Below, piece after piece: positions 5,290-60,347 of a DNA stretch of 64,000 bases. The notes under the pieces are model-generated. The model was not told where the DNA came from. It saw nothing but the letters and a program-made list of their open reading frames with translations, and ran no database searches. Source of the stretch: Enterobacter phage EC-F2; sequence record MN508624.2; one strand, given 5' to 3'. Position numbers and translations under genes: made by a program. Within the stretch, counting starts at the first letter, position 1. Each line of letters begins with the position of its first letter.

Positions 5290-5296
5290 AAAACAG

Positions 5297-5324
5297 TTGA
5301 CAGTGAGTGCGGGTGTGATAAGAT
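5297..5324 (+). promoter_or_regulatory. sigma70-type early promoter TTGACA-N16-TAAGAT
   Basis: -35 at 5297-5302 and -10 at 5319-5324, upstream of the 5350 ORF. Confidence 0.5.
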
Positions 5325-5349
5325 ACCCGCACAAACAAAGGAGAATATT

Positions 5350-7007: not shown

Positions 7008-7084
7008 GGCCCTTTAGCTTAATTGGTTAGAGCGGGTGACTCATAATCGCGCGGTTGCTGGTTCAAGTCCAGCAGGGGCCACCA
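7008..7084 (+). tRNA. tRNA with anticodon CAT (Met, or Ile2 if lysidinylated), CCA encoded
   Basis: Cloverleaf checked by hand: acceptor ggccctt/aggggcc, anticodon loop ctCATaa, T-loop GGTTCAAGTCC. Confidence 0.8.
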
Positions 7085-7089
7085 AATAC

Positions 7090-7165
7090 GCAGGTGTAGT
7101 TCAATTGGTAGAATATCTGGTTTCCATCCAGATTGTTGAGGGTTCGAGTCCCTTCACCTGCTCCA
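7090..7165 (+). tRNA. tRNA-Gly (anticodon TCC), CCA encoded
   Basis: Acceptor gcaggtg/cacctgc, anticodon loop ttTCCat, T-loop GGTTCGAGTCC. Confidence 0.8.
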
Positions 7166-8713: not shown

Positions 8714-8994
8714 TGGCGATTGAAGACGTACAGGGCTATAAGCCCCATTCGAAAGAAAAGATCGACAAAGTAAACCGCATCAAGGCCGCAGAAGTTGCCC
8801 TGGGCGAAATCTTCAAAGAACTGGATGAAGAGTATTCAAGTGATTACGCGGTATCAGATACCGATTCATTCACTACAGAAGAACTCGATGCGATGCTTGA
8901 ACGTATCCATCAAATCCAAAAGGCGAAAGACCGACTGAAAGAAGCCTCTATGTGGGCGTGTCGCGCGGTGTTCCAGCCCGAAGAAAAGTATTAA
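8713..8994 (+). CDS. hypothetical acidic protein (93 aa)
   Basis: ATGG overlap with the grcA stop. Confidence 0.5.
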   Translation: MAIEDVQGYKPHSKEKIDKVNRIKAAEVALGEIFKELDEEYSSDYAVSDTDSFTTEELDAMLERIHQIQKAKDRLKEASMWACRAVFQPEEKY

Positions 8995-9044
8995 AATCAA
9001 GCCGTTGCCGAAAGGTAGCGGCTTTTTTCGTTTTTATGCAAAAT

Positions 9045-9109
9045 AATGCTTGCACTGAATCGTGAGTATGGTAAAGTACACACATCGAAACGAAACTGAG
9101 GATGACATT
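9045..9109 (+). promoter_or_regulatory. promoter (aaTGCTTgca box-like, then N12, then TATGGT) followed by conserved leader ACACATCGAAACGAAAC
   Basis: MotA-box-like motif 12 nt upstream of a -10-like hexamer. The leader is shared with other cassettes. Confidence 0.35.
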
Positions 9110-12551: not shown

Positions 12552-12570
12552 ATAGCACTTTTTGCTAAAG

Positions 12571-12643
12571 AAGCCCCTTGCATATGTGAGGGGCTTTTTG
12601 TATATTACACACATCGAAACGAAACAGACAAAAGGAACATCCC
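12571..12643 (+). repeat. PeSL-like cassette: terminator hairpin + TATATT + leader ACACACATCGAAACGAAACAGA + SD
   Basis: Hairpin agcccct-N10-aggggct + T5, then a conserved element seen at least 7 times in the window. Confidence 0.6.
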
Positions 12644-12916
12644 ATGCAAATCACTAAAGAACTCGAAGGCAAAGTAATCGTTCTGGTAAATGAAGACCGT
12701 TTGGCACAACTGGGTAACGGTGGTGAAAAACTGCCAGCGGACGCACTCGAAAGCCTTTCTAAAATGCGCGTGATGCGCGTTACTGACGGTTGGGTTACTT
12801 GTCTGCCTCTGAACGACGAAGACAAAGCCGTATACGATGCACAAGCGGATTCATGGGATATCGAAGTACCTCTGGTAAACATCGAAGTTGAAGAGTGCTA
12901 CGAAATCGAAAAATAA
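12644..12916 (+). CDS. hypothetical protein (90 aa)
   Basis: First ORF after the cassette. Confidence 0.5.
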   Translation: MQITKELEGKVIVLVNEDRLAQLGNGGEKLPADALESLSKMRVMRVTDGWVTCLPLNDEDKAVYDAQADSWDIEVPLVNIEVEECYEIEK

Positions 12917-12968
12917 TGCTTGCTTACTGGGTAATGTAGTGGTACATTACCCATATCGAAACGAAAGG
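12905..12968 (+). promoter_or_regulatory. promoter (aaTGCTTgct box-like) + variant leader CATATCGAAACGAAAGGAG
   Basis: Same architecture as 9045-9109. Confidence 0.35.
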
Positions 12969-13157
12969 AGAAACATCATGAAAATTATACACACTGCAAA
13001 TCAACTTCAAAACGGCAACTACGCTATCCACGATGCTATCGGTGCGCTGGTTGGGGTTTATCTTCATGGTATCAAACTCCTTGAAGTAAGTGGGAATACC
13101 TTTTATGGTGTTGAAAACATCGAAGCAGCGATGGAAATTATCGGTGACCTGAAATGA
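12969..13157 (+). CDS. hypothetical protein (63 aa)
   Basis: ATG 12969 after SD aaaggag. Confidence 0.5.
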   Translation, partial: RNIMKIIHTANQLQNGNYAIHDAIGALVGVYLHGIKLLEVSGNTFYGVENIEAAMEIIGDLK

Positions 13158-21189: not shown

Positions 21190-21191
21190 CA

Positions 21192-21217
21192 AAAAGCCCC
21201 GAAAGGGGCTTTTCTTA
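21192..21217 (+). terminator. hairpin aagccccgaaaggggctt + T-rich
   Basis: Follows the gp25 stop. Confidence 0.55.
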
Positions 21218-21953: not shown

Positions 21954-22222
21954 GCTAATTCCTTCTCGATTGCTTCGATGATGTGGAGAACGTAACCGTT
22001 CAGTTCTTTTGCTTTATCAGCGGCTTCAACCATACCATAACGAGGAACTTCTAAAACGTTCGCACCTTCGAGCAGGTTGCTTTCGATGTCTACGATTACA
22101 TAGCTCTCACCGATTGCCGCGCCTTTTCTCCAGTCTTTTACGAACTTCATCATTTTAGCTTTCATGTTCTCGTTCCTTTTGGCTGTTCCGTTTCGATATG
22201 TGTAATATAACAAAGCCCTCAC
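21950..22222 (-). CDS. hypothetical protein (90 aa)
   Basis: ORF immediately downstream of a PeSL cassette. Confidence 0.5.
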   Translation of the reverse strand: MRALLYYTYRNGTAKRNENMKAKMMKFVKDWRKGAAIGESYVIVDIESNLLEGANVLEVPRYGMVEAADKAKELNGYVLHIIEAIEKELA

Positions 22223-22245
22223 GCGAACGCAAGGGCTTTTTTGGA
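22183..22245 (-). repeat. PeSL-like cassette (hairpin gccctcacgcgaacgcaagggc + TTATATT + ACACATATCGAAACGGAACAG)
   Basis: The hairpin is an exact copy of the one at 33221-33247. Confidence 0.6.
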
Positions 22246-28497: not shown

Positions 28498-28518
28498 AAT
28501 AACTTCCTCACGAAAAAA

Positions 28519-28540
28519 GCCCCTTTCGGGGCTTGATTAA
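28519..28540 (-). terminator. hairpin agccccgaaaggggct + T6 (minus strand)
   Basis: Follows the stop of the 28541-28819 gene. Confidence 0.5.
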
Positions 28541-28860: not shown

Positions 28861-29076
28861 TTACACTTCGTTAAACCATGCAAGATATTTCTTCTCTTGT
28901 CTGTTCAAAACGTCATAACAAGAGGCGACACAAACGGTTTCCCACACAACTTCATCGTAAGCATTCACGAAGCGAATGATCAGAGTTTTGCCATTAGTCA
29001 TCAAAGCCGGAGTGAACCCAAGTTCTTTAACCGCTTTTACTTTCTTCTGGAATAACGCTTTAGTCATGTTAGCCAT
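28861..29076 (-). CDS. hypothetical protein (about 71 aa, start MANMTK)
   Basis: Start chosen after SD aaaggagg. Confidence 0.45.
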   Translation of the reverse strand: MANMTKALFQKKVKAVKELGFTPALMTNGKTLIIRFVNAYDEVVWETVCVASCYDVLNRQEKKYLAWFNEV

Positions 29077-33179: not shown

Positions 33180-33189
33180 TTTTCTTCCT

Positions 33190-33247
33190 TTTCATTATTC
33201 ATGCGGTATGTGTATATAATACAAAAGCCCTCACGCGAACGCAAGGG
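33190..33247 (-). repeat. PeSL-like cassette (same hairpin as 22209-22242; degenerate leader)
   Basis: aaagccctcacgcgaacgcaagggctttttt is duplicated exactly. Confidence 0.55.
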
Positions 33248-33263
33248 CTTTTTTAATCTTTTA

Positions 33264-34331
33264 TCAGAGTCCCGTGAAAGCCACAACGATTTGATAGTGG
33301 TCATCGAAGAATTCCCCTTGTCGTTGTACGACCTCATGTAAGGGCATCCAGAACGCCTCTAGCGCATCGTCAGAACCGCCCATAATGCGGGGCAGACTAC
33401 CATCATTGTTAGGCTCTAACTTGATGTACTGCGCCACAGTCGGTTTTGAGAAGTATACGGAACGCTTCGGATGATCGAACAGCATCGAATTACGGATTGA
33501 ACCACGAATAACCTTTTCAGGAACCTTGATCCGTACCTCTTCGAGCAGTTCACGGATCGCACAATCCAGGAACGTTTCATTTGCGTTTTTGTGTCCACCA
33601 GGAAGGGCTAACGCGTCTTTACCTGGGGCAAACTTACGGCGAATTACCAGCAGGTGATTGTTACACACAACCACACTATCACCCGTGCAGCAGTTTAGCG
33701 CTTCTGGGTATGGGTAGTTTTTGAATTTCTCCAATTCGCTTTCCCATTTCTCGTATTCGTAGTACAGTCGCCAAAATGTATCCGTCATCATCCATGAATT
33801 GATATAACTCACAGTAGACGAAGGAACATAACGAGATAGTTTCTTATCCCATCCATTCTTATGCAAAAAGATGGTTGGTCGCAAATCGGTCGCAGATAAA
33901 TCTTTCCCGTCAACCTTAACTGGATCTACCGGAACATGAGTCCATCCAAACGCTTTCAGCCAGTATGAATCAGCATCCTTTTCGTAACCATAGATCGCGA
34001 TGTTGTCGCCTTTGGTTTCGTCGATTGCTGTACGAACAGAGGTTTTCCATTTTTCTTCGTTGTAAAGATAATCAGGAATATGAGCAAATTTAACACGACA
34101 AACATCTTCGTATTTGTATTCAGTCATCAGCCACGAAAAGATCATTCTTTCGCGTTCGTTCGCTGTCAGCGGGTTTAAAACGTTAGGGTAAGCATATGCT
34201 GAACCCAGAAGGATGTAAACGGTTTTTGCTTCTTCGAGTGCTTTACGCACCATTGCTGCATGACCATTATGGAAGGGTTGGAATCTGCCAATTACGACAG
34301 CTTTATCAAATTGTTTCATAACGTGCTCCAC
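33264..34331 (-). CDS. natV: bifunctional nicotinamide-mononucleotide adenylyltransferase / Nudix ADP-ribose pyrophosphatase (NadM/NatV-like)
   Basis: N-terminal VIGRFQPFHNGH (HxGH nucleotidyltransferase motif). C-terminal Nudix box GGHKNANETFLDCAIRELLEEV. Confidence 0.75.
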   Translation of the reverse strand: MEHVMKQFDKAVVIGRFQPFHNGHAAMVRKALEEAKTVYILLGSAYAYPNVLNPLTANERERMIFSWLMTEYKYEDVCRVKFAHIPDYLYNEEKWKTSVRTAIDETKGDNIAIYGYEKDADSYWLKAFGWTHVPVDPVKVDGKDLSATDLRPTIFLHKNGWDKKLSRYVPSSTVSYINSWMMTDTFWRLYYEYEKWESELEKFKNYPYPEALNCCTGDSVVVCNNHLLVIRRKFAPGKDALALPGGHKNANETFLDCAIRELLEEVRIKVPEKVIRGSIRNSMLFDHPKRSVYFSKPTVAQYIKLEPNNDGSLPRIMGGSDDALEAFWMPLHEVVQRQGEFFDDHYQIVVAFTGL

Positions 34332-34343
34332 GTTTAAAGGTTA

Positions 34344-34442
34344 ATCATAAAACAGACGCAATCACCAATACACCAAGAAAACCGCCAATAAAGCCGAAGA
34401 ATAGCGAAATGAAGATAGTAAGGATGATCTGTTTTATGTTCA
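34344..34442 (-). CDS. 32-aa hydrophobic micro-protein (MNIKQIILTIFISLFFGFIGGFLGVLVIASVL)
   Basis: ATG with SD. A single TM helix. Lies between the SPFH gene and natV. Confidence 0.35.
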
Positions 34443-34454
34443 TTGTAGTATTCT

Positions 34455-34480
34455 CGTTCGGAGAAAGCCCCCGCTCTGGG
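34455..34480 (-). terminator. hairpin agcccccagagcgggggct
   Basis: After the SPFH gene stop. Confidence 0.45.
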
Positions 34481-34492
34481 GGCTTTAAACCC

Positions 34493-35419: not shown

Positions 35420-35480
35420 TGGGTTTATGTTTCAATTCGATAGTTATTCTATCATCACTTTTTCGCTTGTCAAACTCTTT

Positions 35481-40205: not shown

Positions 40206-40221
40206 AATTTAATCCTCAATA

Positions 40222-40270
40222 GTTGGTACACACATAATAAAAAAGCCCCTGCGAAATTGCAAGGGCTTTT
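40222..40270 (-). repeat. PeSL-like cassette (hairpin gcccctgcgaaattgcaagggc; variant leader)
   Basis: Same hairpin family. Confidence 0.5.
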
Positions 40271-40272
40271 TA

Positions 40273-40923
40273 TCAGATAATGCGTTTTTCTTCTAACAGC
40301 TTCGCGGTATGGTTAACCATGCGAGCGTAATCACGGGCTTCTTTCTTTGAATACTTGAATCCCGCGTTGTAACTCGCCAGCGCCTTTTTCAAGTCGCCTT
40401 TGTGGTAATCAAGCCAGTATTCCAGTTCGTGAAGTGCATACTTGGAACCACCCCGAAGGGTTTCGAGCTTATTGATTACTACGCGTTTGGAATATGATTT
40501 ATCCATTCGTGCGGACGCGCTACGGGCTGTTACTTGAAAACAACCATAAGCATGATGATTCTTTTTGCCTTTCCCTACGTTCTCACATGCGCGAGACTCG
40601 ATCCAGGCAATAGCCGCTAAATGATATCCCAAACGTTTCGATGTTTCCGATTCAACTGGCTTTGCAGTTTTGAGATCGTATTCGTTACCGATCCTGAAAG
40701 CGTACTCCAAAACCTTTTTCTGCTTTGGTGTAATATCATCCAATTCCTTAACATAACTGGGGGCATTGGCTGGCGCTTTCTTCATTACTGTTGCTTGTTG
40801 TAGCGGTAAAGTTGACTTCACAGAAGGGAGTGTTTGGATAAACTCTCCTAACGGATCAGTCGCCGCGTTGCCAGAAAAAGAGCATAAGGCAACAACAAAA
40901 GGTAGTATCCATTTGAATTTCAT
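40273..40923 (-). CDS. soluble lytic transglycosylase (SLT-domain) with signal peptide
   Basis: Signal peptide MKFKWILPFVVALCSFSGNAA, then WIESRA...YGCFQV (catalytic Glu plus GLMQ-like motif). Confidence 0.6.
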   Translation of the reverse strand: MKFKWILPFVVALCSFSGNAATDPLGEFIQTLPSVKSTLPLQQATVMKKAPANAPSYVKELDDITPKQKKVLEYAFRIGNEYDLKTAKPVESETSKRLGYHLAAIAWIESRACENVGKGKKNHHAYGCFQVTARSASARMDKSYSKRVVINKLETLRGGSKYALHELEYWLDYHKGDLKKALASYNAGFKYSKKEARDYARMVNHTAKLLEEKRII

Positions 40924-41459
40924 GGGCTTTCCTTATTATAAAAAGTTCCAAAATTTAACAACGCTGATTTTTTATACACATTACTTGCTTCTTCGGGATC
41001 ATCAAAAGAACCGAGATATGTCACTTTACCATACAATGTTATTTGCGCAATCCATTTTTGGTTTGAGCTATTCCATGTAACACCAGTAAATCCAGAAGTG
41101 TTGTTTTTCTGCATACCTTTCTTTTGTGAATTTTGTGTGTTGGTTACTTCTTGTAAGTTTCTAATACCATCACCAAAAGCAACGCCTTTTTTATGATCTA
41201 TCATGACAGGGAGATTGCCAGTAGAAACATAATAGACTATTCGATGTCTTCTAAGCTGTTTTCCTTTGAAGTTTATAACTGTGTATCCGTCCTTTCTTAG
41301 TGTTCCTGCAACAGAACCAATTTTAATCTTTCTATTGGTTGATACAGTCCATACACATAGTCCGGTTGACGTATCAACACTAATATAGTTAAGTAATTCG
41401 TCTATCAGGTCTTTTTCTTCTGATAGCGTTCTTTCTCCCCATCCATAAGATTTCTTCAT
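40920..41459 (-). CDS. HNH-AP2 homing endonuclease (free-standing)
   Basis: HRIVYYV...MIDHKKG...NL (HNH_3) plus C-terminal GVTWNSSNQKWIAQI...GSFDDPEEASNVY (AP2 domain). Confidence 0.75.
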   Translation of the reverse strand: MKKSYGWGERTLSEEKDLIDELLNYISVDTSTGLCVWTVSTNRKIKIGSVAGTLRKDGYTVINFKGKQLRRHRIVYYVSTGNLPVMIDHKKGVAFGDGIRNLQEVTNTQNSQKKGMQKNNTSGFTGVTWNSSNQKWIAQITLYGKVTYLGSFDDPEEASNVYKKSALLNFGTFYNKESP

Positions 41460-42450: not shown

Positions 42451-42454
42451 GTAT

Positions 42455-42485
42455 ACCTCACGAAAAAGGGGCCGAAGCCCCCTTG
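42455..42485 (-). terminator. hairpin ggggcttcggcccc + T6 (minus strand)
   Basis: Downstream of the phoH stop. Confidence 0.5.
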
Positions 42486-42486
42486 A

Positions 42487-46087: not shown

Positions 46088-46094
46088 ATTTCAC

Positions 46095-46125
46095 CTACAA
46101 AAAAGCCCCTTTCGGGGCTGGGATT
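46095..46125 (-). terminator. hairpin agccccgaaaggggct + T6 (minus strand)
   Basis: After the stop of the 46124 gene. Confidence 0.5.
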
Positions 46126-46387: not shown

Positions 46388-46459
46388 TTTAATCCCCTTG
46401 TTTATCTGTTTCGTTGTCTACGAGAGAGATATTACCACAACGGGGATTAGTGTCAACAG

Positions 46460-49924: not shown

Positions 49925-50172
49925 TTGATACGTACCGCGTTAAAAGCCTGGTTGCGCAGTTCATAAGCCTGTTCAAGCTGTTCAGTAGTGAACAGAGGGC
50001 TATCGGTATTAGTGGTGAAACTACAAATGGTTTTGTTGTCGGCGTTGACTTCTTCAACAACGATTTCATAACCCCATGCCCCACTGTACTCACATTTCAC
50101 GTTCCGGTACTTGATGTAAACTGCTGCAACATCTTCTTTTTTGTAGTTCCGGCTTTTGTAGATGATTTCCAT
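49921..50172 (-). CDS. hypothetical protein (83 aa)
   Basis: Preceded by the leader motif CACACATCGAAACGAAGGAGG. Confidence 0.5.
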   Translation of the reverse strand: MEIIYKSRNYKKEDVAAVYIKYRNVKCEYSGAWGYEIVVEEVNADNKTICSFTTNTDSPLFTTEQLEQAYELRNQAFNAVRIK

Positions 50173-50226
50173 GATTTCCTCCTTCGTTTCGATGTGTGTA
50201 CAATAACAGATCAGGGTTATGGAGTT

Positions 50227-50400
50227 TTAGCAATTCGTGCTAATTACAGTAGCATTTCCATTTGCAACAGAACGCTCCAGGGATTCGGCGGTAACAGTGA
50301 ATTCAGGGAACCATTGACCGATATTGCTTGACCACCACCAGACATTCACGCCGTCAGTTTTGAATTCGATGTTCAGGTAGTTACTGAAAATATGTTTCAT
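50227..50400 (-). CDS. hypothetical Trp-rich protein (57 aa, start MKHIFSN)
   Basis: Internal ATG after SD aagggga. Avoids overlap. Confidence 0.4.
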   Translation of the reverse strand: MKHIFSNYLNIEFKTDGVNVWWWSSNIGQWFPEFTVTAESLERSVANGNATVISTNC

Positions 50401-50410
50401 GTTATTCCCC

Positions 50411-50689
50411 TTATGCCATTTTCTTAGCGATTTTCCATGCGGCTTTGAACGCTGGAACATCTTCAACATCAACCCAGAAACCAGAACCGAAACCATCGTT
50501 GTAGCAAGGGCAACCGTCGCAGTAGTTTTCCCAGGTCATCACTTTACCACCAACAGAAGCACCAGTTTCCATCGCACGTAATGCATCTTCAACTTTTTCC
50601 AGTTTTTCTGCATTGTCGTCATAAATGATGAAGTACCATTTGCCGTTGTATTCGTTACCCAGTTTGATTGCTTCGCGAACAAGTTTCAT
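50411..50689 (-). CDS. hypothetical protein (92 aa, start MKLVREAIK)
   Basis: The true start follows the PeSL leader. The longer ORF-track version includes the leader. Confidence 0.5.
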   Translation of the reverse strand: MKLVREAIKLGNEYNGKWYFIIYDDNAEKLEKVEDALRAMETGASVGGKVMTWENYCDGCPCYNDGFGSGFWVDVEDVPAFKAAWKIAKKMA

Positions 50690-50699
50690 GATGTTTTCC

Positions 50700-50765
50700 T
50701 TTCTCTGTTTCGTTTCGATGTGTGTAATATAACAAAAGCCCCTGGCGGTTGCAAGGGGCTTTTTA
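50700..50765 (-). repeat. PeSL-like cassette (hairpin gcccctggcggttgcaaggggc + TTATATTACACACATCGAAACGAAACAGAGAAAGGAAAA)
   Basis: Near-identical to the cassette at 52411-52487. Confidence 0.6.
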
Positions 50766-50776
50766 AACAAAAAGTG

Positions 50777-51022
50777 CTATTTTGTTTCTTCGAGGATTCG
50801 AAGGATTTCGGCGCGGGTGATTGGATGTTTTGCCAGCTCACGGATCGCGTGGTCAACGTGTATCTTACACATCAAAAACTTCTCCCCGCACTTGTCGCAT
50901 GTTGCATACATATCGCCATGTATACGCCCGATTGCATCAGTCACCCAATAACGCATCCATGCATAAGGAGTTCCCCGCATCCATCCGGTAGCAACATGAT
51001 TGCATTTACGTTTACCGAACAT
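50777..51022 (-). CDS. small Cys/His-rich protein (CDKCGEKF...C..HVDH), possible zinc finger
   Basis: ORF. Confidence 0.45.
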   Translation of the reverse strand: MFGKRKCNHVATGWMRGTPYAWMRYWVTDAIGRIHGDMYATCDKCGEKFLMCKIHVDHAIRELAKHPITRAEILRILEETK

Positions 51023-51023
51023 A

Positions 51024-51626
51024 TCACCACCCGTTAGGATTGCGGAAATGGGTTTGCCAGTAGCGCAGTTGTTCGCGGTTCATGTTTTGGTTATCAATCA
51101 CCATACCCTGAATCATCTGCAACATCATGCGGGTTTGATTGACATCCTCCAGGCTCGCTATACGCTGTTTTAAGGCTTTGTTTTCCTCTTCTAACTCAAC
51201 CATACGGTTGTATGCGTTGACGCGCTCCAGAGGCATATCAGGGCGCTCTTTGAGGACACGGGCGCGGGATACTTCGCATTCGTGATTTGCTTTCCAGTGC
51301 GCGGCTTCTGATTCTGCTTTTTGCTTGTCTCGAAGCGCGAGTGACAGATCGCTAACCAGATCCAGAACCGTTTGCGGATCTACGGTTTCCAGATATTTTC
51401 CGAGACCCTCTTCCCAGCTTTTAATCTGTGTAGGGCTGTCGCCATATGGAACACCATATGAGAACGCGCGTTTATACTCTTTGCCCCTGAAACCATATTC
51501 CTGATTTCCCTGGATGCTCATATTTTCAACGAGAGTCCACTTACTACCCATCATAGAAGAAATCGAACGGGCTGATTTTTCAATTTCTTCAAGTTTTTCA
51601 CTTGTTACTTTCATTTTGTACTCCAC
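51024..51626 (-). CDS. hypothetical coiled-coil protein (200 aa)
   Basis: ORF. Confidence 0.55.
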   Translation of the reverse strand: MEYKMKVTSEKLEEIEKSARSISSMMGSKWTLVENMSIQGNQEYGFRGKEYKRAFSYGVPYGDSPTQIKSWEEGLGKYLETVDPQTVLDLVSDLSLALRDKQKAESEAAHWKANHECEVSRARVLKERPDMPLERVNAYNRMVELEEENKALKQRIASLEDVNQTRMMLQMIQGMVIDNQNMNREQLRYWQTHFRNPNGW

Positions 51627-52027
51627 AAATCATATTGTGCGCGAAGGATAGCGTAAAGGCTACCGATATTGATTGAATCGACCGGACACTGGAACAAATC
51701 AGAGCGCATCATATTGAACTCAATATTGTTCTGTTCAACGAAGTTACCGATCATTGATGTCCAGCCCATCACCAGGTTATATCCGTCTTCGGATAACCCG
51801 TAAGCTAGGTTAACCCTGATACAACGCTTATCAGCCAGTTCTACGCTGATACAGTTACTTGAATGCATGGAATTGCATGGGAATTTGCTAGGAAACTTAC
51901 GGAACATCTGGGTAAGGAGTTTAGCCGTTTCAATGTTGATTGCGCGTTCCTGATCCCTTTGCGCCTGGTTGTCATGACGGCGATTCAGATACTTTTCCAT
52001 TTTTGGGTTGAGATTCACATGTTGCAT
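51611..52027 (-). CDS. hypothetical protein (138 aa)
   Basis: ORF. Confidence 0.5.
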   Translation of the reverse strand: MQHVNLNPKMEKYLNRRHDNQAQRDQERAINIETAKLLTQMFRKFPSKFPCNSMHSSNCISVELADKRCIRVNLAYGLSEDGYNLVMGWTSMIGNFVEQNNIEFNMMRSDLFQCPVDSINIGSLYAILRAQYDLWSTK

Positions 52028-52236
52028 AATATATTCCTCACAGGTTTAAAGCGTTCTTTTCCGGTTCCATTACATGAACTGCATTTCGGAGATCGGTCGC
52101 TATCATATCGCCCCGATCCGTTACATGCAACACATTTCCGTAATTTCCAGCCATACACGAACCGCATGTAATAATCGGTTCGTGCGGCCTTGCGTTCGTG
52201 GAAGTTCATACTTTGTTGTAAACCTGAACCAGCCAC
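52015..52236 (-). CDS. DnaJ-type zinc-finger-like small protein (CVACNGSGR...CSSCNGTGK)
   Basis: Two CxxCxGxG repeats. Confidence 0.5.
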   Translation of the reverse strand: MAGSGLQQSMNFHERKAARTDYYMRFVYGWKLRKCVACNGSGRYDSDRSPKCSSCNGTGKERFKPVRNILCNM

Positions 52237-52409
52237 ATTTCGATGTTCGGCGCGTAAGTAACGTTTACCATCGGCATAGTGCGGTATTTGTAAGCGGCTT
52301 TGTATGCTTCCAGTTCGGTCGCAACACAGAAAGAGAAACCGTTGTCATAACGTTCGGCGTTAGCAACTTCACAACCAACAACAGCAGCAATGTTTTTGTT
52401 CATGTTCAT
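52206..52409 (-). CDS. hypothetical protein (67 aa)
   Basis: First ORF after the PeSL cassette. Confidence 0.5.
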   Translation of the reverse strand: MNMNKNIAAVVGCEVANAERYDNGFSFCVATELEAYKAAYKYRTMPMVNVTYAPNIEMWLVQVYNKV

Positions 52410-52410
52410 G

Positions 52411-52487
52411 ATGATTTTCCTTTCTCTGTTTCGTTTCGATGTGTGTAATATAACAAAGCCCCTGCATTACTGCAAGGGCTTTTTTGA
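52411..52487 (-). repeat. PeSL-like cassette (hairpin gcccctgcattactgcaagggc + conserved promoter/leader)
   Basis: Identical 40-nt leader to 50700-50740. Confidence 0.6.
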
Positions 52488-52489
52488 TA

Positions 52490-52795
52490 TTATTCGAAAT
52501 TTTCCGGCAATTGATCTACAAGTGCTTGAGTTTGATGAAGTTCTTCACTCAATTTATCGCGATAATGAACCAGTTCGCGGGTTCTTGCCGCTGAATAGCT
52601 AATGATTTTATCAGCAGTAGCGGTGTACCCGTAGCCGGAACACGCAATTTCCAGCTTTGCATTATCACCGTTAGGTACGCGGATATGAGCATAACCAAGC
52701 AGGTTTTTAACCGCTTGCAACAGGTCATGATCTTCTTTACCGATGATAAACTGGTTTGGTTCTACTGAATCAATAAGTTCTTCGTCTTTGTTCAT
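52490..52795 (-). CDS. hypothetical protein (101 aa)
   Basis: ORF. Confidence 0.5.
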   Translation of the reverse strand: MNKDEELIDSVEPNQFIIGKEDHDLLQAVKNLLGYAHIRVPNGDNAKLEIACSGYGYTATADKIISYSAARTRELVHYRDKLSEELHQTQALVDQLPENFE

Positions 52796-56101: not shown

Positions 56102-56242
56102 CTCACTTAAAAAATTTTTTGATGAAAGAGAGGAACAATCCACCACCGAACATGATCCAGTATCCCGCGCCGTCACCGTTAAACAGGACATACACAGCGA
56201 CACCATAGCAAAAGATTTCCGCGATATTCAGTAAGTTTCTCA
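56102..56242 (-). CDS. 46-aa two-TM micro-protein (MRNLLNIAEIFCYGVAVYVLF...)
   Basis: Strong SD aaaggaggg, hydrophobic. Confidence 0.4.
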
Positions 56243-56332
56243 TAACTCCCTCCTTTGTCTACACCAGGTATTTTACCAGAAAGTAGATTACTGTCAACAA
56301 CAAAGTTTTATCAACCCACTTATCACCAGTCA

Positions 56333-56473: not shown

Positions 56474-56477
56474 GATT

Positions 56478-56537
56478 GCCTCCTTTGTTTCGACACCCCT
56501 AATATAACAAAAGCCCCTGCACTAATGCAAGGGCTTT
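56478..56537 (-). repeat. PeSL-like cassette (hairpin gcccctgcactaatgcaagggc + TTATATTAGGGGTGTCGAAACAAAGGAGG)
   Basis: Same hairpin family. Confidence 0.55.
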
Positions 56538-56539
56538 TT

Positions 56540-59270: not shown

Positions 59271-59294
59271 TTTATAGATATTTAGATCAAGACC

Positions 59295-59454
59295 GTGAGC
59301 GAAGCGAACACACGAACGAAGTGAGTGTTATGTACGATGTACTGTTTATAATATTTATATTTTATATATAGAGAAAACAGTACATTTCCGTATACTTTTT
59401 ATACAATCGTTAACTATCCGTCTTCGCTTCGCTTGACGGAACTCGCTTCGCTCG
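59295..59454. promoter_or_regulatory. divergent control region with nested inverted repeats (outer GAGCGAAGCGAA / TTCGCTTCGCTC; inner GTACTGTTT / AAACAGTAC) around an AT-rich core
   Basis: Seen directly. Lies between gp3 (-) and the internal-protein gene (+). CTAAATA-type late promoter motifs sit at both edges. Confidence 0.45.
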
Positions 59455-59526
59455 CGATCTAATTTTTAGTTGATCTATTCAATAAATAGGTATATCATAC
59501 CTATACTTTCAAAAGAGATTGAAAAC

Positions 59527-60312: not shown

Positions 60313-60315
60313 AAA

Positions 60316-60345
60316 TAAAGCCCCTTCCTTTCGGTTGGGGCTTTT
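60316..60345. terminator. bidirectional hairpin agcccc-ttcctttcggtt-ggggct + T5
   Basis: Lies between the convergent IP and gp2 genes. Confidence 0.55.
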
Positions 60346-60347
60346 TG

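Follow-up and report, generated by a model that had tools for sequence, protein, structure and literature searches.

Enterobacter phage EC-F2 carries, within the 64,000-nucleotide stretch of its genome analysed here (sequence record MN508624.2, hereafter the window), seven copies of a short cassette in which a terminator-like hairpin overlaps a predicted early promoter. The repeat family is real and statistically solid. We consider it likely that each cassette is a compact terminator or attenuator combined with a sigma70 promoter at which early transcription restarts, and that the family is the RB43-lineage type of the promoter-early stem-loop (PeSL).

The window is 98.5% identical to Klebsiella phage phi1_146002 and about 97.8% identical to Cronobacter phage GAP161 (megablast, 10-20 kb), the latter being classified in the Straboviridae, genus Pseudotevenvirus, RB43/RB16 group. 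It belongs to an RB43/GAP161-like Pseudotevenvirus, a T4-type phage. Rightward early genes (nrdB, denA, rnlA, pseT, cd, ligase) occupy 1-14 kb, and a leftward block at 21.2-59.3 kb, bounded by baseplate gene 25 and gene 3, contains about 90 genes which are mostly small and hypothetical. The term cassette is used for the unit of hairpin, promoter and leader; promoter/leader elements without the cassette hairpin are called variants and are counted separately. Intergenic positions were called from a strand-block gene map of the window.

All seven copies listed in an initial annotation of the window are present (Table 1). Each is intergenic and on the same strand as its flanking genes, and six lie inside the 21-59 kb block of small leftward genes. 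A hairpin pattern gave eight matches on five sites in the window and none in 100 shuffles, while a leader pattern gave five matches and none in shuffles. The hairpins have folding energies of -18 to -21.2 kcal/mol (z -4.1 to -6.3), and 0 of 200 shuffled sequences folded equally well. A covariance model was trained on the five copies that are in register and used to scan the window with filters off. The training copies scored 58-65 bits and the two held-out copies 30.6 and 29.5 bits (E about 4e-4 to 8e-4), and the next gene-strand matches were unrelated terminators at 8990-9039, 60309 and 21180, a ranking that gives exactly seven cassettes in the window. Pattern shuffles, folding shuffles and the covariance model rule out chance, and the annotation was correct that stems are conserved while loops vary and that the leaders at 50700 and 52411 are identical over about 40 nt.

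The complete phi1_146002 genome has about 12 copies by the covariance model, all in early regions and all on the gene strand. The extra copies follow an Erf-like gene, lie in the denV region, separate regA from the open reading frame (ORF) beside the DNA polymerase gene (the gene 43 locus) and follow nrdD, and a further, weak copy precedes the topoisomerase gene. A blastn search with one 80-nt cassette matched 186 phage records, nearly all of them large RB43-like genomes with 4-11 places each and a few short or partial ones with 1-2 places. The genes 3' of the cassettes in the window encode 46-134 aa; three were scanned against Pfam, and frd.1 (DUF5417) was the sole match.

The anatomy of the cassettes, like their copy number, strand specificity, conservation and covariation, can be read directly from the sequence. 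The upstream stop codon lies 2-21 nt 5' of an A-tract, which is followed by a stem of 12-13 bp with the gene-strand consensus AAAAAGCCC(C)TTGC-loop-G(C/T)(A/G)(A/G)GGG(G)CTTT. The hairpin reported initially is present, its quoted consensus being a plus-strand or hybrid reading. When the cassettes are aligned with the hairpin-less variants, CTTGC is invariant and is followed by N17-18 and TAnnnT in all seven cassettes and in four of the five variants, which places a -35 element, TTGC(A/G)N, inside the left stem arm. This arm carries an invariant CCCTTGC that contains the -35 (TTGCxx). The resulting layout, TTGC(A/G)N-N17-TATATT/TATTAT (N18 once), is sigma70-like in 7/7 copies. The spacer of 17 nt (18 in one copy) is made up of the loop, the right arm and the T-run, the U-rich tail of the terminator running into the -10, and the A-tract that pairs with the T-run is located at -40 to -45, the position of an UP element. 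The -10 is TATATT in five copies, in line with the initial description, and TATTAT in the copies at 33190 and 40222. A leader with a Shine-Dalgarno (SD) sequence runs into an ATG in every copy, although the leader quoted initially, ACACACATCGAAACGAAAC, is found in only four (12571, 22183, 50700 and 52411); the copy at 56478 retains only TCGAAAC of it, and the leaders at 33190 and 40222 are different. The G+C hairpin followed by a U-rich tract (tail TTT(T)(T)GTTATATT) has the make-up of an intrinsic terminator, and a terminator consensus scan picked up six of the seven copies, missing cassette 1.

Comparison of 32 distinct hairpin variants from eight genomes suggests that an RNA hairpin has been selected for in one orientation. 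All 32 keep the left-arm TTG, while its partners vary (A/G, A/G, C/T) with pairing kept through G-U wobble, and because of this the gene strand is the more stable in 32/32 variants (mean -18.8 vs -14.5 kcal/mol). The loop-closing pair covaries (A-T 15, C-G 3, G-C 3), and at the cassette-5 locus a base pair that is A-T in RB43 is G-C in the window. A DNA cruciform or a bidirectional terminator that is symmetric does not fit this strand asymmetry, whereas an RNA terminator for the transcript coming from upstream does. Even close relatives have different loops (TTAG, TTCG, CGAA; GTAA, GCAA) while the total length and the spacer stay constant, as expected if the hairpin must also keep promoter spacing. 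Likewise, a second use of the left arm as a -35 would explain why it is invariant while the right arm varies, and this one-sided invariance is the best argument that the alignments offer for a putative -35 at this place.

Promoter and terminator activity, start site and early timing are predictions drawn from this anatomy. The cassette would stop or attenuate the transcript arriving from the upstream gene, and host RNA polymerase (sigma70) would at once restart early transcription for the next gene, which is usually small and uncharacterised. The predicted start of the new transcript is the A of ATCGAAAC, 7 nt past the -10, and the unstructured, A-rich leader of this transcript would lead to the ribosome-binding site and ATG.

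Several observations weigh against a terminator joined to a restarting promoter. The -35 agrees with TTGACA at just 3-4 of 6 positions, and a generic TTGACA/TATAAT consensus scan of the window lists only two of the seven cassettes, although the same scan does not rise above shuffles (40 vs 38, 26 vs 35 and 35 vs 36) and is uninformative for the cassettes. The U-tract is short (3-5 U) and interrupted, so that termination may be partial, and a literature search found no Pseudotevenvirus transcriptome giving 5' or 3' transcript ends. One could take the cassettes to be intrinsic terminators only, their hexamers incidental and the downstream genes expressed by read-through, since the hairpin and T-run are the strongest signal and the -35 is weak, and since plain terminators followed by a direct SD and no promoter do occur in the window (28498-28540, 42451-42486 and 46088-46123). 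We regard this as quite unlikely. Pairing alone would not need an invariant left arm, a fixed 17-18 nt to TAnnnT, or GAAAC at 9 nt from the -10, and the hairpin-less variants retain CTTGC-N17-TAnnnT-N9-GAAAC. Moreover, an independent hidden Markov model (HMM) called early promoters at the RB43 orthologues of all seven cassettes (Pe:57694, 67362, 79242, 85900, 95419, 96875 and 100921 in the supplement of Nolan 2006, PMC1524935).

Table 1. Coordinates of cassettes, variants and associated features in the window. Scores are from the covariance model; features on the minus strand are described in the gene-strand direction.
Feature	Coordinates	Strand	Score (bits)	Context	Sequence elements
Cassette 1	12552-12643	+	29.5	between DNA ligase gp30 and a 90-aa ORFan	hairpin GCCCCTTGC-ATAT-GTGAGGGGC, -21.2 kcal/mol, z -5.9; -35 TTGCAT 12578-12583; -10 TATATT 12601-12606; predicted +1 A 12613; leader ATCGAAACGAAACAGACAAAAGGAAC; ATG at 12644
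Cassette 2	22166-22245	-	63.6	then 71-aa ORF	hairpin AAAGCCCTTGCG-TTCG-CGTGAGGGCTTT; -10 TATATT; leader ACACATATCGAAACGGAACAG
Cassette 3	33180-33263	-	65	3' of NMN adenylyltransferase/Nudix gene; then 64-aa ORF	hairpin as in cassette 2; -10 TATTAT; leader diverged, without GAAAC
Cassette 4	40206-40272	-	58.4	3' of vs.1; then 134-aa ORF	hairpin GCCCTTGC-AATTTC-GCAGGGGC; -10 TATTAT; leader unrelated
Cassette 5	50690-50776	-	30.6	5' of frd.1 (DUF5417)	hairpin GCCCCT(T)GC-AACC-GC(C)AGGGGC; -10 TATATT; full leader
Cassette 6 (exemplar)	52410-52489	-	64.6		-20.4 kcal/mol; A-tract 52485-52480; left arm GCCCTTGCA 52479-52471; -35 TTGCAG 52475-52470; loop GTAA 52470-52467; right arm and T-run 52466-52455; spacer 17 nt; -10 TATATT 52452-52447; predicted +1 A 52440; GAAAC 52437-52433; SD ~52422-52417; ATG 52409-52407
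Cassette 7	56474-56539	-	60.7	then 46-aa ORF	hairpin AAAAGCCCTTGCA-TTAG-TGCAGGGGCTTTT; spacer 18 nt; -10 TATATT; leader AGGGGTGTCGAAACAAAGGAGG
Variant 9045	8995-9109	+	26.6 (hairpin)	separate terminator hairpin 8999-9024 upstream of promoter	promoter CTTGCAC-N16-TGgTAAAGT; leader ACACACATCGAAACGAAAC
Variant 12905	12917-12977	+			promoter GCTTGCTT...TACATT; stem-loop GGGTAATGTA-GTGG-TACATTACCC covers -10; leader CATATCGAAACGAAAGGAG
Variant P2	28820-28884	-		-35 within end of 71-aa ORF	CTTGCAT-N17-TATATT-GGCCTTGTT-GAAACGAAAC
Variant P1	29077-29134	-		fifth variant, absent from initial annotation	CTTGCAC-N17-TACCTT-AGCTTTACC-GAAAC
Variant 50168	50173-50242	-		no -35	marbox TAGCACGAATTGCTAA, 21 nt, extended -10 TGtTATTGT; 3' part ACACAC-ATCGAAACGAAGGAGG-ATG
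Marbox-like	12552-12571	+		cassette 1	AATAGCACTTTTTGCTAAAG; exact core 12555-12569
Marbox-like	50779-50764	-		cassette 5	TAGCACTTTTTGTTTA; one mismatch
Marbox	50242-50227	-		variant 50168	TAGCACGAATTGCTAA; exact core 50240-50226
Start motif sites	12613-12625; 52440-52428; 50718-50706; 22196-22187; 9082-9094; 12953-12965; 28838-28826; 29094-29090; 56490-56486				GAAAC motif
81-aa ORFan	50777-51022	-		exactly between upstream stop codon and edge of cassette 5 (TAGCAC...)

The leaders contain a motif, GAAAC (usually CATCGAAAC, often GAAACGAAAC), located exactly 9 nt past many early-promoter -10s with or without a hairpin. It occurs at this distance from a promoter-like -10 nine times in the window and 11 times in a whole relative genome, against a background of 0-2 at other spacings. 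The 9 nt between the -10 and GAAAC are variable in sequence and the distance to the ATG ranges from 18 to 28 nt, and the fixed -10 distance combined with a variable ATG distance ties the motif to the start site rather than to translation. The annotated T7 starts A1 and A3 are the A of ATCGAGAGG and of ATGAAACGACAG, respectively, and in the phi80 pL a -10 of TTTAAT is followed after 6 nt by ATCGAAACGAAAC (phi80 locus positions 408-420). By analogy with these promoters +1 is predicted to be the A of ATCGAAAC, and the transcript would begin AUCGAAAC. A scan of IMG/VR for TAnnnT-N5-CATCGAAACGAAAC found at least 120 matching stretches; 85 are the pL of phi80/HK225/HK639-type lambdoid phages and the others are mostly from T1-like siphoviruses (NBD2, Webervirus) and T4-like phages. 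GAAAC might serve promoter escape, or be an operator, a 5'-end element or a site of recombination. Preservation of the leader across cassette copies and phage families might instead reflect a structured cis-regulatory RNA or small RNA, but the leader is A-rich with no predicted pairing, keeps its spacing to the -10 and not to the ATG, and in the phi80 pL the motif is not followed by a start codon. The only gathering-score matches to Rfam in the whole window are two tRNAs, with nothing at E <= 1 in 50100-52600, and two phi80-type loci were also without a match, making an RNA of this kind highly improbable.

A second lead concerns the 5' ends of some copies. The sequence AATAGCAC(TTTT/GAAT)TGCTAAA fits both published forms of the marbox consensus, AYnGCACnnWnnRYYAAAY and gcannwwntgnnaaa. 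The same element, TAGCAC-N4-TGCTAA(A), takes the place of the -35 in variant 50168 and in promoters of T1-like phages, and forms the 5' extension common to cassettes 1 and 5. Variant 50168 has it facing forward, with its centre near -40 relative to the predicted +1, and has no separate -35. This resembles class II promoters of MarA/SoxS/Rob/RamA such as micF, in which a forward marbox lies at -36 to -55 (at about -41 in micF) in place of the -35; T1-like phages share the arrangement. Cassettes 1 and 5 differ in that their forward box is centred at about -51, 11 bp (one helical turn) further upstream and 5' of a separate -35. The genome of a T1-like Webervirus has 17 exact matches to the marbox core where 0.4 are expected, and at least 10 of these are exactly 20 nt before a -10 that is usually of the extended TGn form.

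Cassettes 1 and 5 and variant 50168 might accordingly be promoters that depend on a monomer of a host AraC-family activator (Rob, MarA, SoxS or, in Klebsiella/Enterobacter, RamA) at a forward marbox 5' of the -35 or in its place, a possibility that would add to, and not replace, a terminator with promoter restart. We put it forward tentatively. The marbox is a sequence match alone, and a phage protein might be what binds the motif, or the motif might work as an UP element; there is one mismatch in cassette 5, and four of the seven cassettes are without the motif, the single core match in cassette 4 (spacing +29) perhaps being due to chance. An UP element as the whole explanation of the TAGCAC motif was rejected as it leaves the conserved GCAC, and the TGCTAAA of the GAAT version, unexplained. 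A sigma54 reading of TAGCAC-N-TTGC was also discarded: the GG is missing, the spacing is 2 nt short and the location is about -40 to -50.

Taken more broadly, the cassettes could be built from portable promoter modules common to unrelated enterobacterial phage families, using a host activator of the MarA/SoxS/Rob/RamA type and a common start sequence, an idea that we hold to be possible rather than probable. The modules would be a marbox at -40 or -51, an optional stem-loop, a -10 that is often extended, and a fixed ATCGAAAC(GAAAC). RB43-like and RB49-like myoviruses have them, as do T1-like siphoviruses, and the start motif is also found in the phi80-type pL. Full-text literature searches found neither the leader nor TAGCAC-N4-TG strings, no link between marboxes and phage promoters among the papers listed, and no description of activator-recruiting phage early promoters or of the common start sequence. 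Of the leads from this work, the start motif that these phages share and the marbox are of most interest.

The four promoter/leader-only variants proposed initially (at 9045, 12905, 28795 and 50168) exist, and they are heterogeneous rather than of one type. The AATAATGCTTGC sequence at 9045 and 12905 could be taken for a MotA box, but this middle-promoter reading was rejected because its TTGC lines up, at sigma70 spacing, with the -35 of the remaining copies and because RB43-type phages lack motA; RB43 has neither a motA gene nor a middle-promoter consensus (Nolan 2006, PMC1524935). A second promoter class, with a near-consensus TTGACA-N16-(TGn)TAnAAT, is present in the gaps 5290-5349, 35420-35480, 46388-46459 and 56207-56300. 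In the promoter at 5297-5340 the -10 is covered by a stem-loop (GTGCGGGT...ACCCGCAC), as is most common in RB49 PeSLs.

It was also proposed initially that the cassettes are mobile and mark the boundaries of acquired modules. Breakpoints were scored from chained blastn alignments of the window with five close relatives (96-97% identity), RB43 (81%) and the KP15-like phage p4515 (77%), a junction counting as a breakpoint when an alignment break lay within 40 bp, and 125 gene junctions were scored. Two results weigh against a recombination role. Among close relatives, breakpoints fell at one of seven cassette junctions compared with 25 of 118 others (one-sided Fisher p = 0.81), and at 4/12 vs 22/113 junctions when variants were included (p = 0.22); RB43 likewise gave no enrichment (p = 0.60). 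All seven cassettes are also at orthologous positions in RB43 (81% identity), which suggests that they are stable rather than actively mobile. With p4515, breakpoints fell at 5/7 cassettes vs 36/118 junctions (p = 0.038), a signal confounded by alignment ends, because a conserved cassette beside diverged genes itself yields alignment breakpoints.

Two loci do show a gene change joined to a cassette or variant. The region at 28.8-29.1 kb has three arrangements: methylase-P-gene115 in p4515, methylase-gene116-P1-gene115 in GAP161 and RB43, and methylase-P1-71-aa ORF-P2-gene115 in the window, where the promoter/leader elements P1 and P2 flank a window-specific 71-aa ORF (28861-29076). The arrangements are joined within the -35 CTTGCA that they share and within the leader, at GAAAC|GAAAC. 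Crossovers that form the RB49 mini-circles map to this zone, from the -10 to the SD/ATG. At the other locus (50.7-51.0 kb) the 81-aa ORFan adjoins cassette 5. The window, phi1_146002, ENT3, BHU20 and EcL22g have this gene, which GAP161, RB43 and p4515 lack, and the cassette type changes with its presence. In the seven genomes in which the hairpin was captured (all but phi1_146002), genomes with the ORFan have a GCCCCTTGCAACCG(C/T)CAGGGGC hairpin and those without it a CCCCTTG(C/T)CTATGGTGAGGGG-type hairpin, and the leader resembles that of cassette 6 in the window and that of cassette 1 in GAP161 and RB43.

A mainly mobile or recombinogenic role, on the PeSL mini-circle model, would account for these two loci, for the extra 5' sequence common to copies 38 kb apart on opposite strands (12552 vs 50776) and for the long identity between the 50700 and 52411 leaders. 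It is nevertheless unlikely given the positional stability and lack of enrichment described above. Most indels are at overlapping stop/start junctions or at homing endonuclease genes, and there is no transposase, target duplication or orientation variation. A miniature inverted-repeat transposable element (MITE) or repetitive extragenic palindromic (REP)-like repeat was rejected as well, all copies being intergenic, on the gene strand and orthologous in RB43, GAP161 and phi1_146002. The mobility and module-boundary interpretation is thus weakly supported. Occasional cassette-joined exchange is real, and it is not dominant or statistically visible. As a weaker, secondary role beside termination and restart, copies may occasionally provide homology for recombination that adds or swaps a gene, as in the PeSL model, because they share 40-90 nt.

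Other changes were seen among the genomes compared. At 40920-41459 (-) the window has a 179-aa gene of its own, with weak Pfam matches to HNH_3 and AP2, that is absent from all seven relatives compared; it is a homing-endonuclease insertion beside vs.1 and is not bounded by cassettes. The segment 51611-55494 is 87% identical to GAP161, against about 97% elsewhere, with ends that are not at hairpin cassettes, which indicates a mosaic segment from homologous recombination. At the cassette-4 locus the loop is inverted between the window (40242-40269, AATTTC) and phi1_146002 (~41180-41210, GAAATT), where the hairpin is a perfect palindrome (GCAAGGGC vs window GCAGGGGC). This is a signature of quasi-palindrome template switching or hairpin inversion.

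Bidirectional terminator hairpins lie between convergent genes at 21190-21214 (AAAAAGCCCCGAAAGGGGCTTTT) and 60313-60347 (AAAGCCCCTTCCTTTCGGTTGGGGCTTTTT); these are weak matches to the covariance model and have no promoter. Gene 3 and a rightward ORF diverge from an intergenic region of 256 bp (59271-59526), which contains an 18-nt inverted repeat (AGACCGTGAGCGAAGCGA / TCGCTTCGCTCGCGATCT, 89%) around a 135-bp A/T-rich core with a 23-nt palindrome, together with a direct repeat of TCGCTTCGCT, and may be an origin-like or regulatory region. Long gaps at 34320-34492 and 50226-50396 (-) hold small unannotated ORFs, one encoding a 32-aa hydrophobic peptide (MNIKQIILTIFISLFFGFIGGFLGVLVIASVL) and the other, of about 56 aa and beside the 50168 promoter, absent from GAP161 and p4515. 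Tandem genes for tRNA-Met (CAT) and tRNA-Gly (TCC) are located at 7008-7165; RB43 has at the equivalent place a single tRNA, annotated as Ile, and no Gly gene.

The cassettes help to map early transcription units in phages of Klebsiella, Enterobacter and Cronobacter that are widely proposed for therapy, with about 12 predicted stop/restart points preceding uncharacterised accessory genes. Through them the PeSL concept reaches the RB43 lineage, where it takes an unusually compact form: the putative UP element, -35, spacer and -10 all overlap the terminator. Their positional stability, with no preferred rearrangement among close relatives, tempers the 'mobile cassette' reading. If the marbox and start-sequence leads are true, host-factor-dependent early promoters would be common to several phage families, and the marbox would link phage early transcription to host stress or bile signals.

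PeSLs are defined by a sigma70-like early promoter, a stem-loop terminator or attenuator, an A/T-rich 5' region with a stop codon, and a 3' SD and ATG, and they sit in hyperplastic early regions before small ORFans; a stem-loop overlapping the -35 is one of five published subclasses (PMC2839356; PMC4122927). The EC-F2 cassettes agree with this definition in architecture and location, so the PeSL assignment made initially stands in this respect, but their hairpins have no homology to those of RB49. The blastn search described above found no RB49 among its 186 records, and the covariance model reached at most 11 bits on 11 kb of RB49, with no hairpin match. The PeSLs of the Krischvirus phages RB49 and phi1 are alike in being composites of promoter, stem-loop, SD and ATG that lie upstream of ORFans in early, hyperplastic regions, and in both groups CATCGAAAC(GAAAC) lies 9 nt after the -10. 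RB49 intergenic regions have TTGACA promoters with stem-loops over the -10 and then, among others, TAAGAT-ACTCCCATC-GAAACGAAAC or TATAAT-ACAAACATC-GAAAC. They differ in the near-consensus -35 and in polyG/polyC stems placed mostly between the -35 and -10 or over the -10, whereas in the RB43 type a TTGCxx -35 lies within an A-tract/T-tract terminator stem. An RB43-type genome has about 12 hairpin-type copies, RB49 about 50 PeSLs, and the association of PeSLs with insertions, deletions or replacements between closely related genomes had no significant counterpart in the RB43-type cassettes. Promoter and terminator activity and mini-circles have been demonstrated for RB49 and phi1 PeSLs only (Arbiol 2010, PMC2839356).

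The PeSLs and PmSLs of T4/PST and KVP40/nt-1 (Comeau 2014, PMC4122927) embody the same concept, each lineage having its own stem and -35; in nt-1 the stem consensus is A3-4G3-loop-C3T3-4 and the -35 TTGYVH. These systems belong to other lineages and have other sequences, and the RB43 group was not analysed in that study. T7 A1/A3 and the phi80/HK225/HK639 pL resemble the cassettes in their initial transcribed sequence and differ in having no terminator hairpin inside the promoter, the phi80 pL serving nutL and N; this likeness may be convergent.

As to the RB43 lineage, the mention of RB43 in Arbiol 2010 (PMC2839356) is confined to 'PeSL-like sequences' at the gene 43 locus, where one of the extra copies sits. 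RB43 early promoters favour G at -33, G/C at -36 and an A-rich stretch from -40 to -44 (Nolan 2006, PMC1524935), preferences which the cassettes match, and several RB43 Pe sites overlap TransTerm terminators. That study differs from the present one in giving promoters and terminators in separate tables, with the overlap, the repeat family and the shared leader undescribed. The authors of the KP15 and KP27 genomes annotated promoters with MEME and terminators with ARNold, without the PeSL concept, and the KP15, KP27 and Miro records label the cassette site promoter and/or terminator ('promoter | terminator'). The components were therefore individually known as predicted signals, and what is new for the RB43 lineage is the view of them as one family with overlapping signals.

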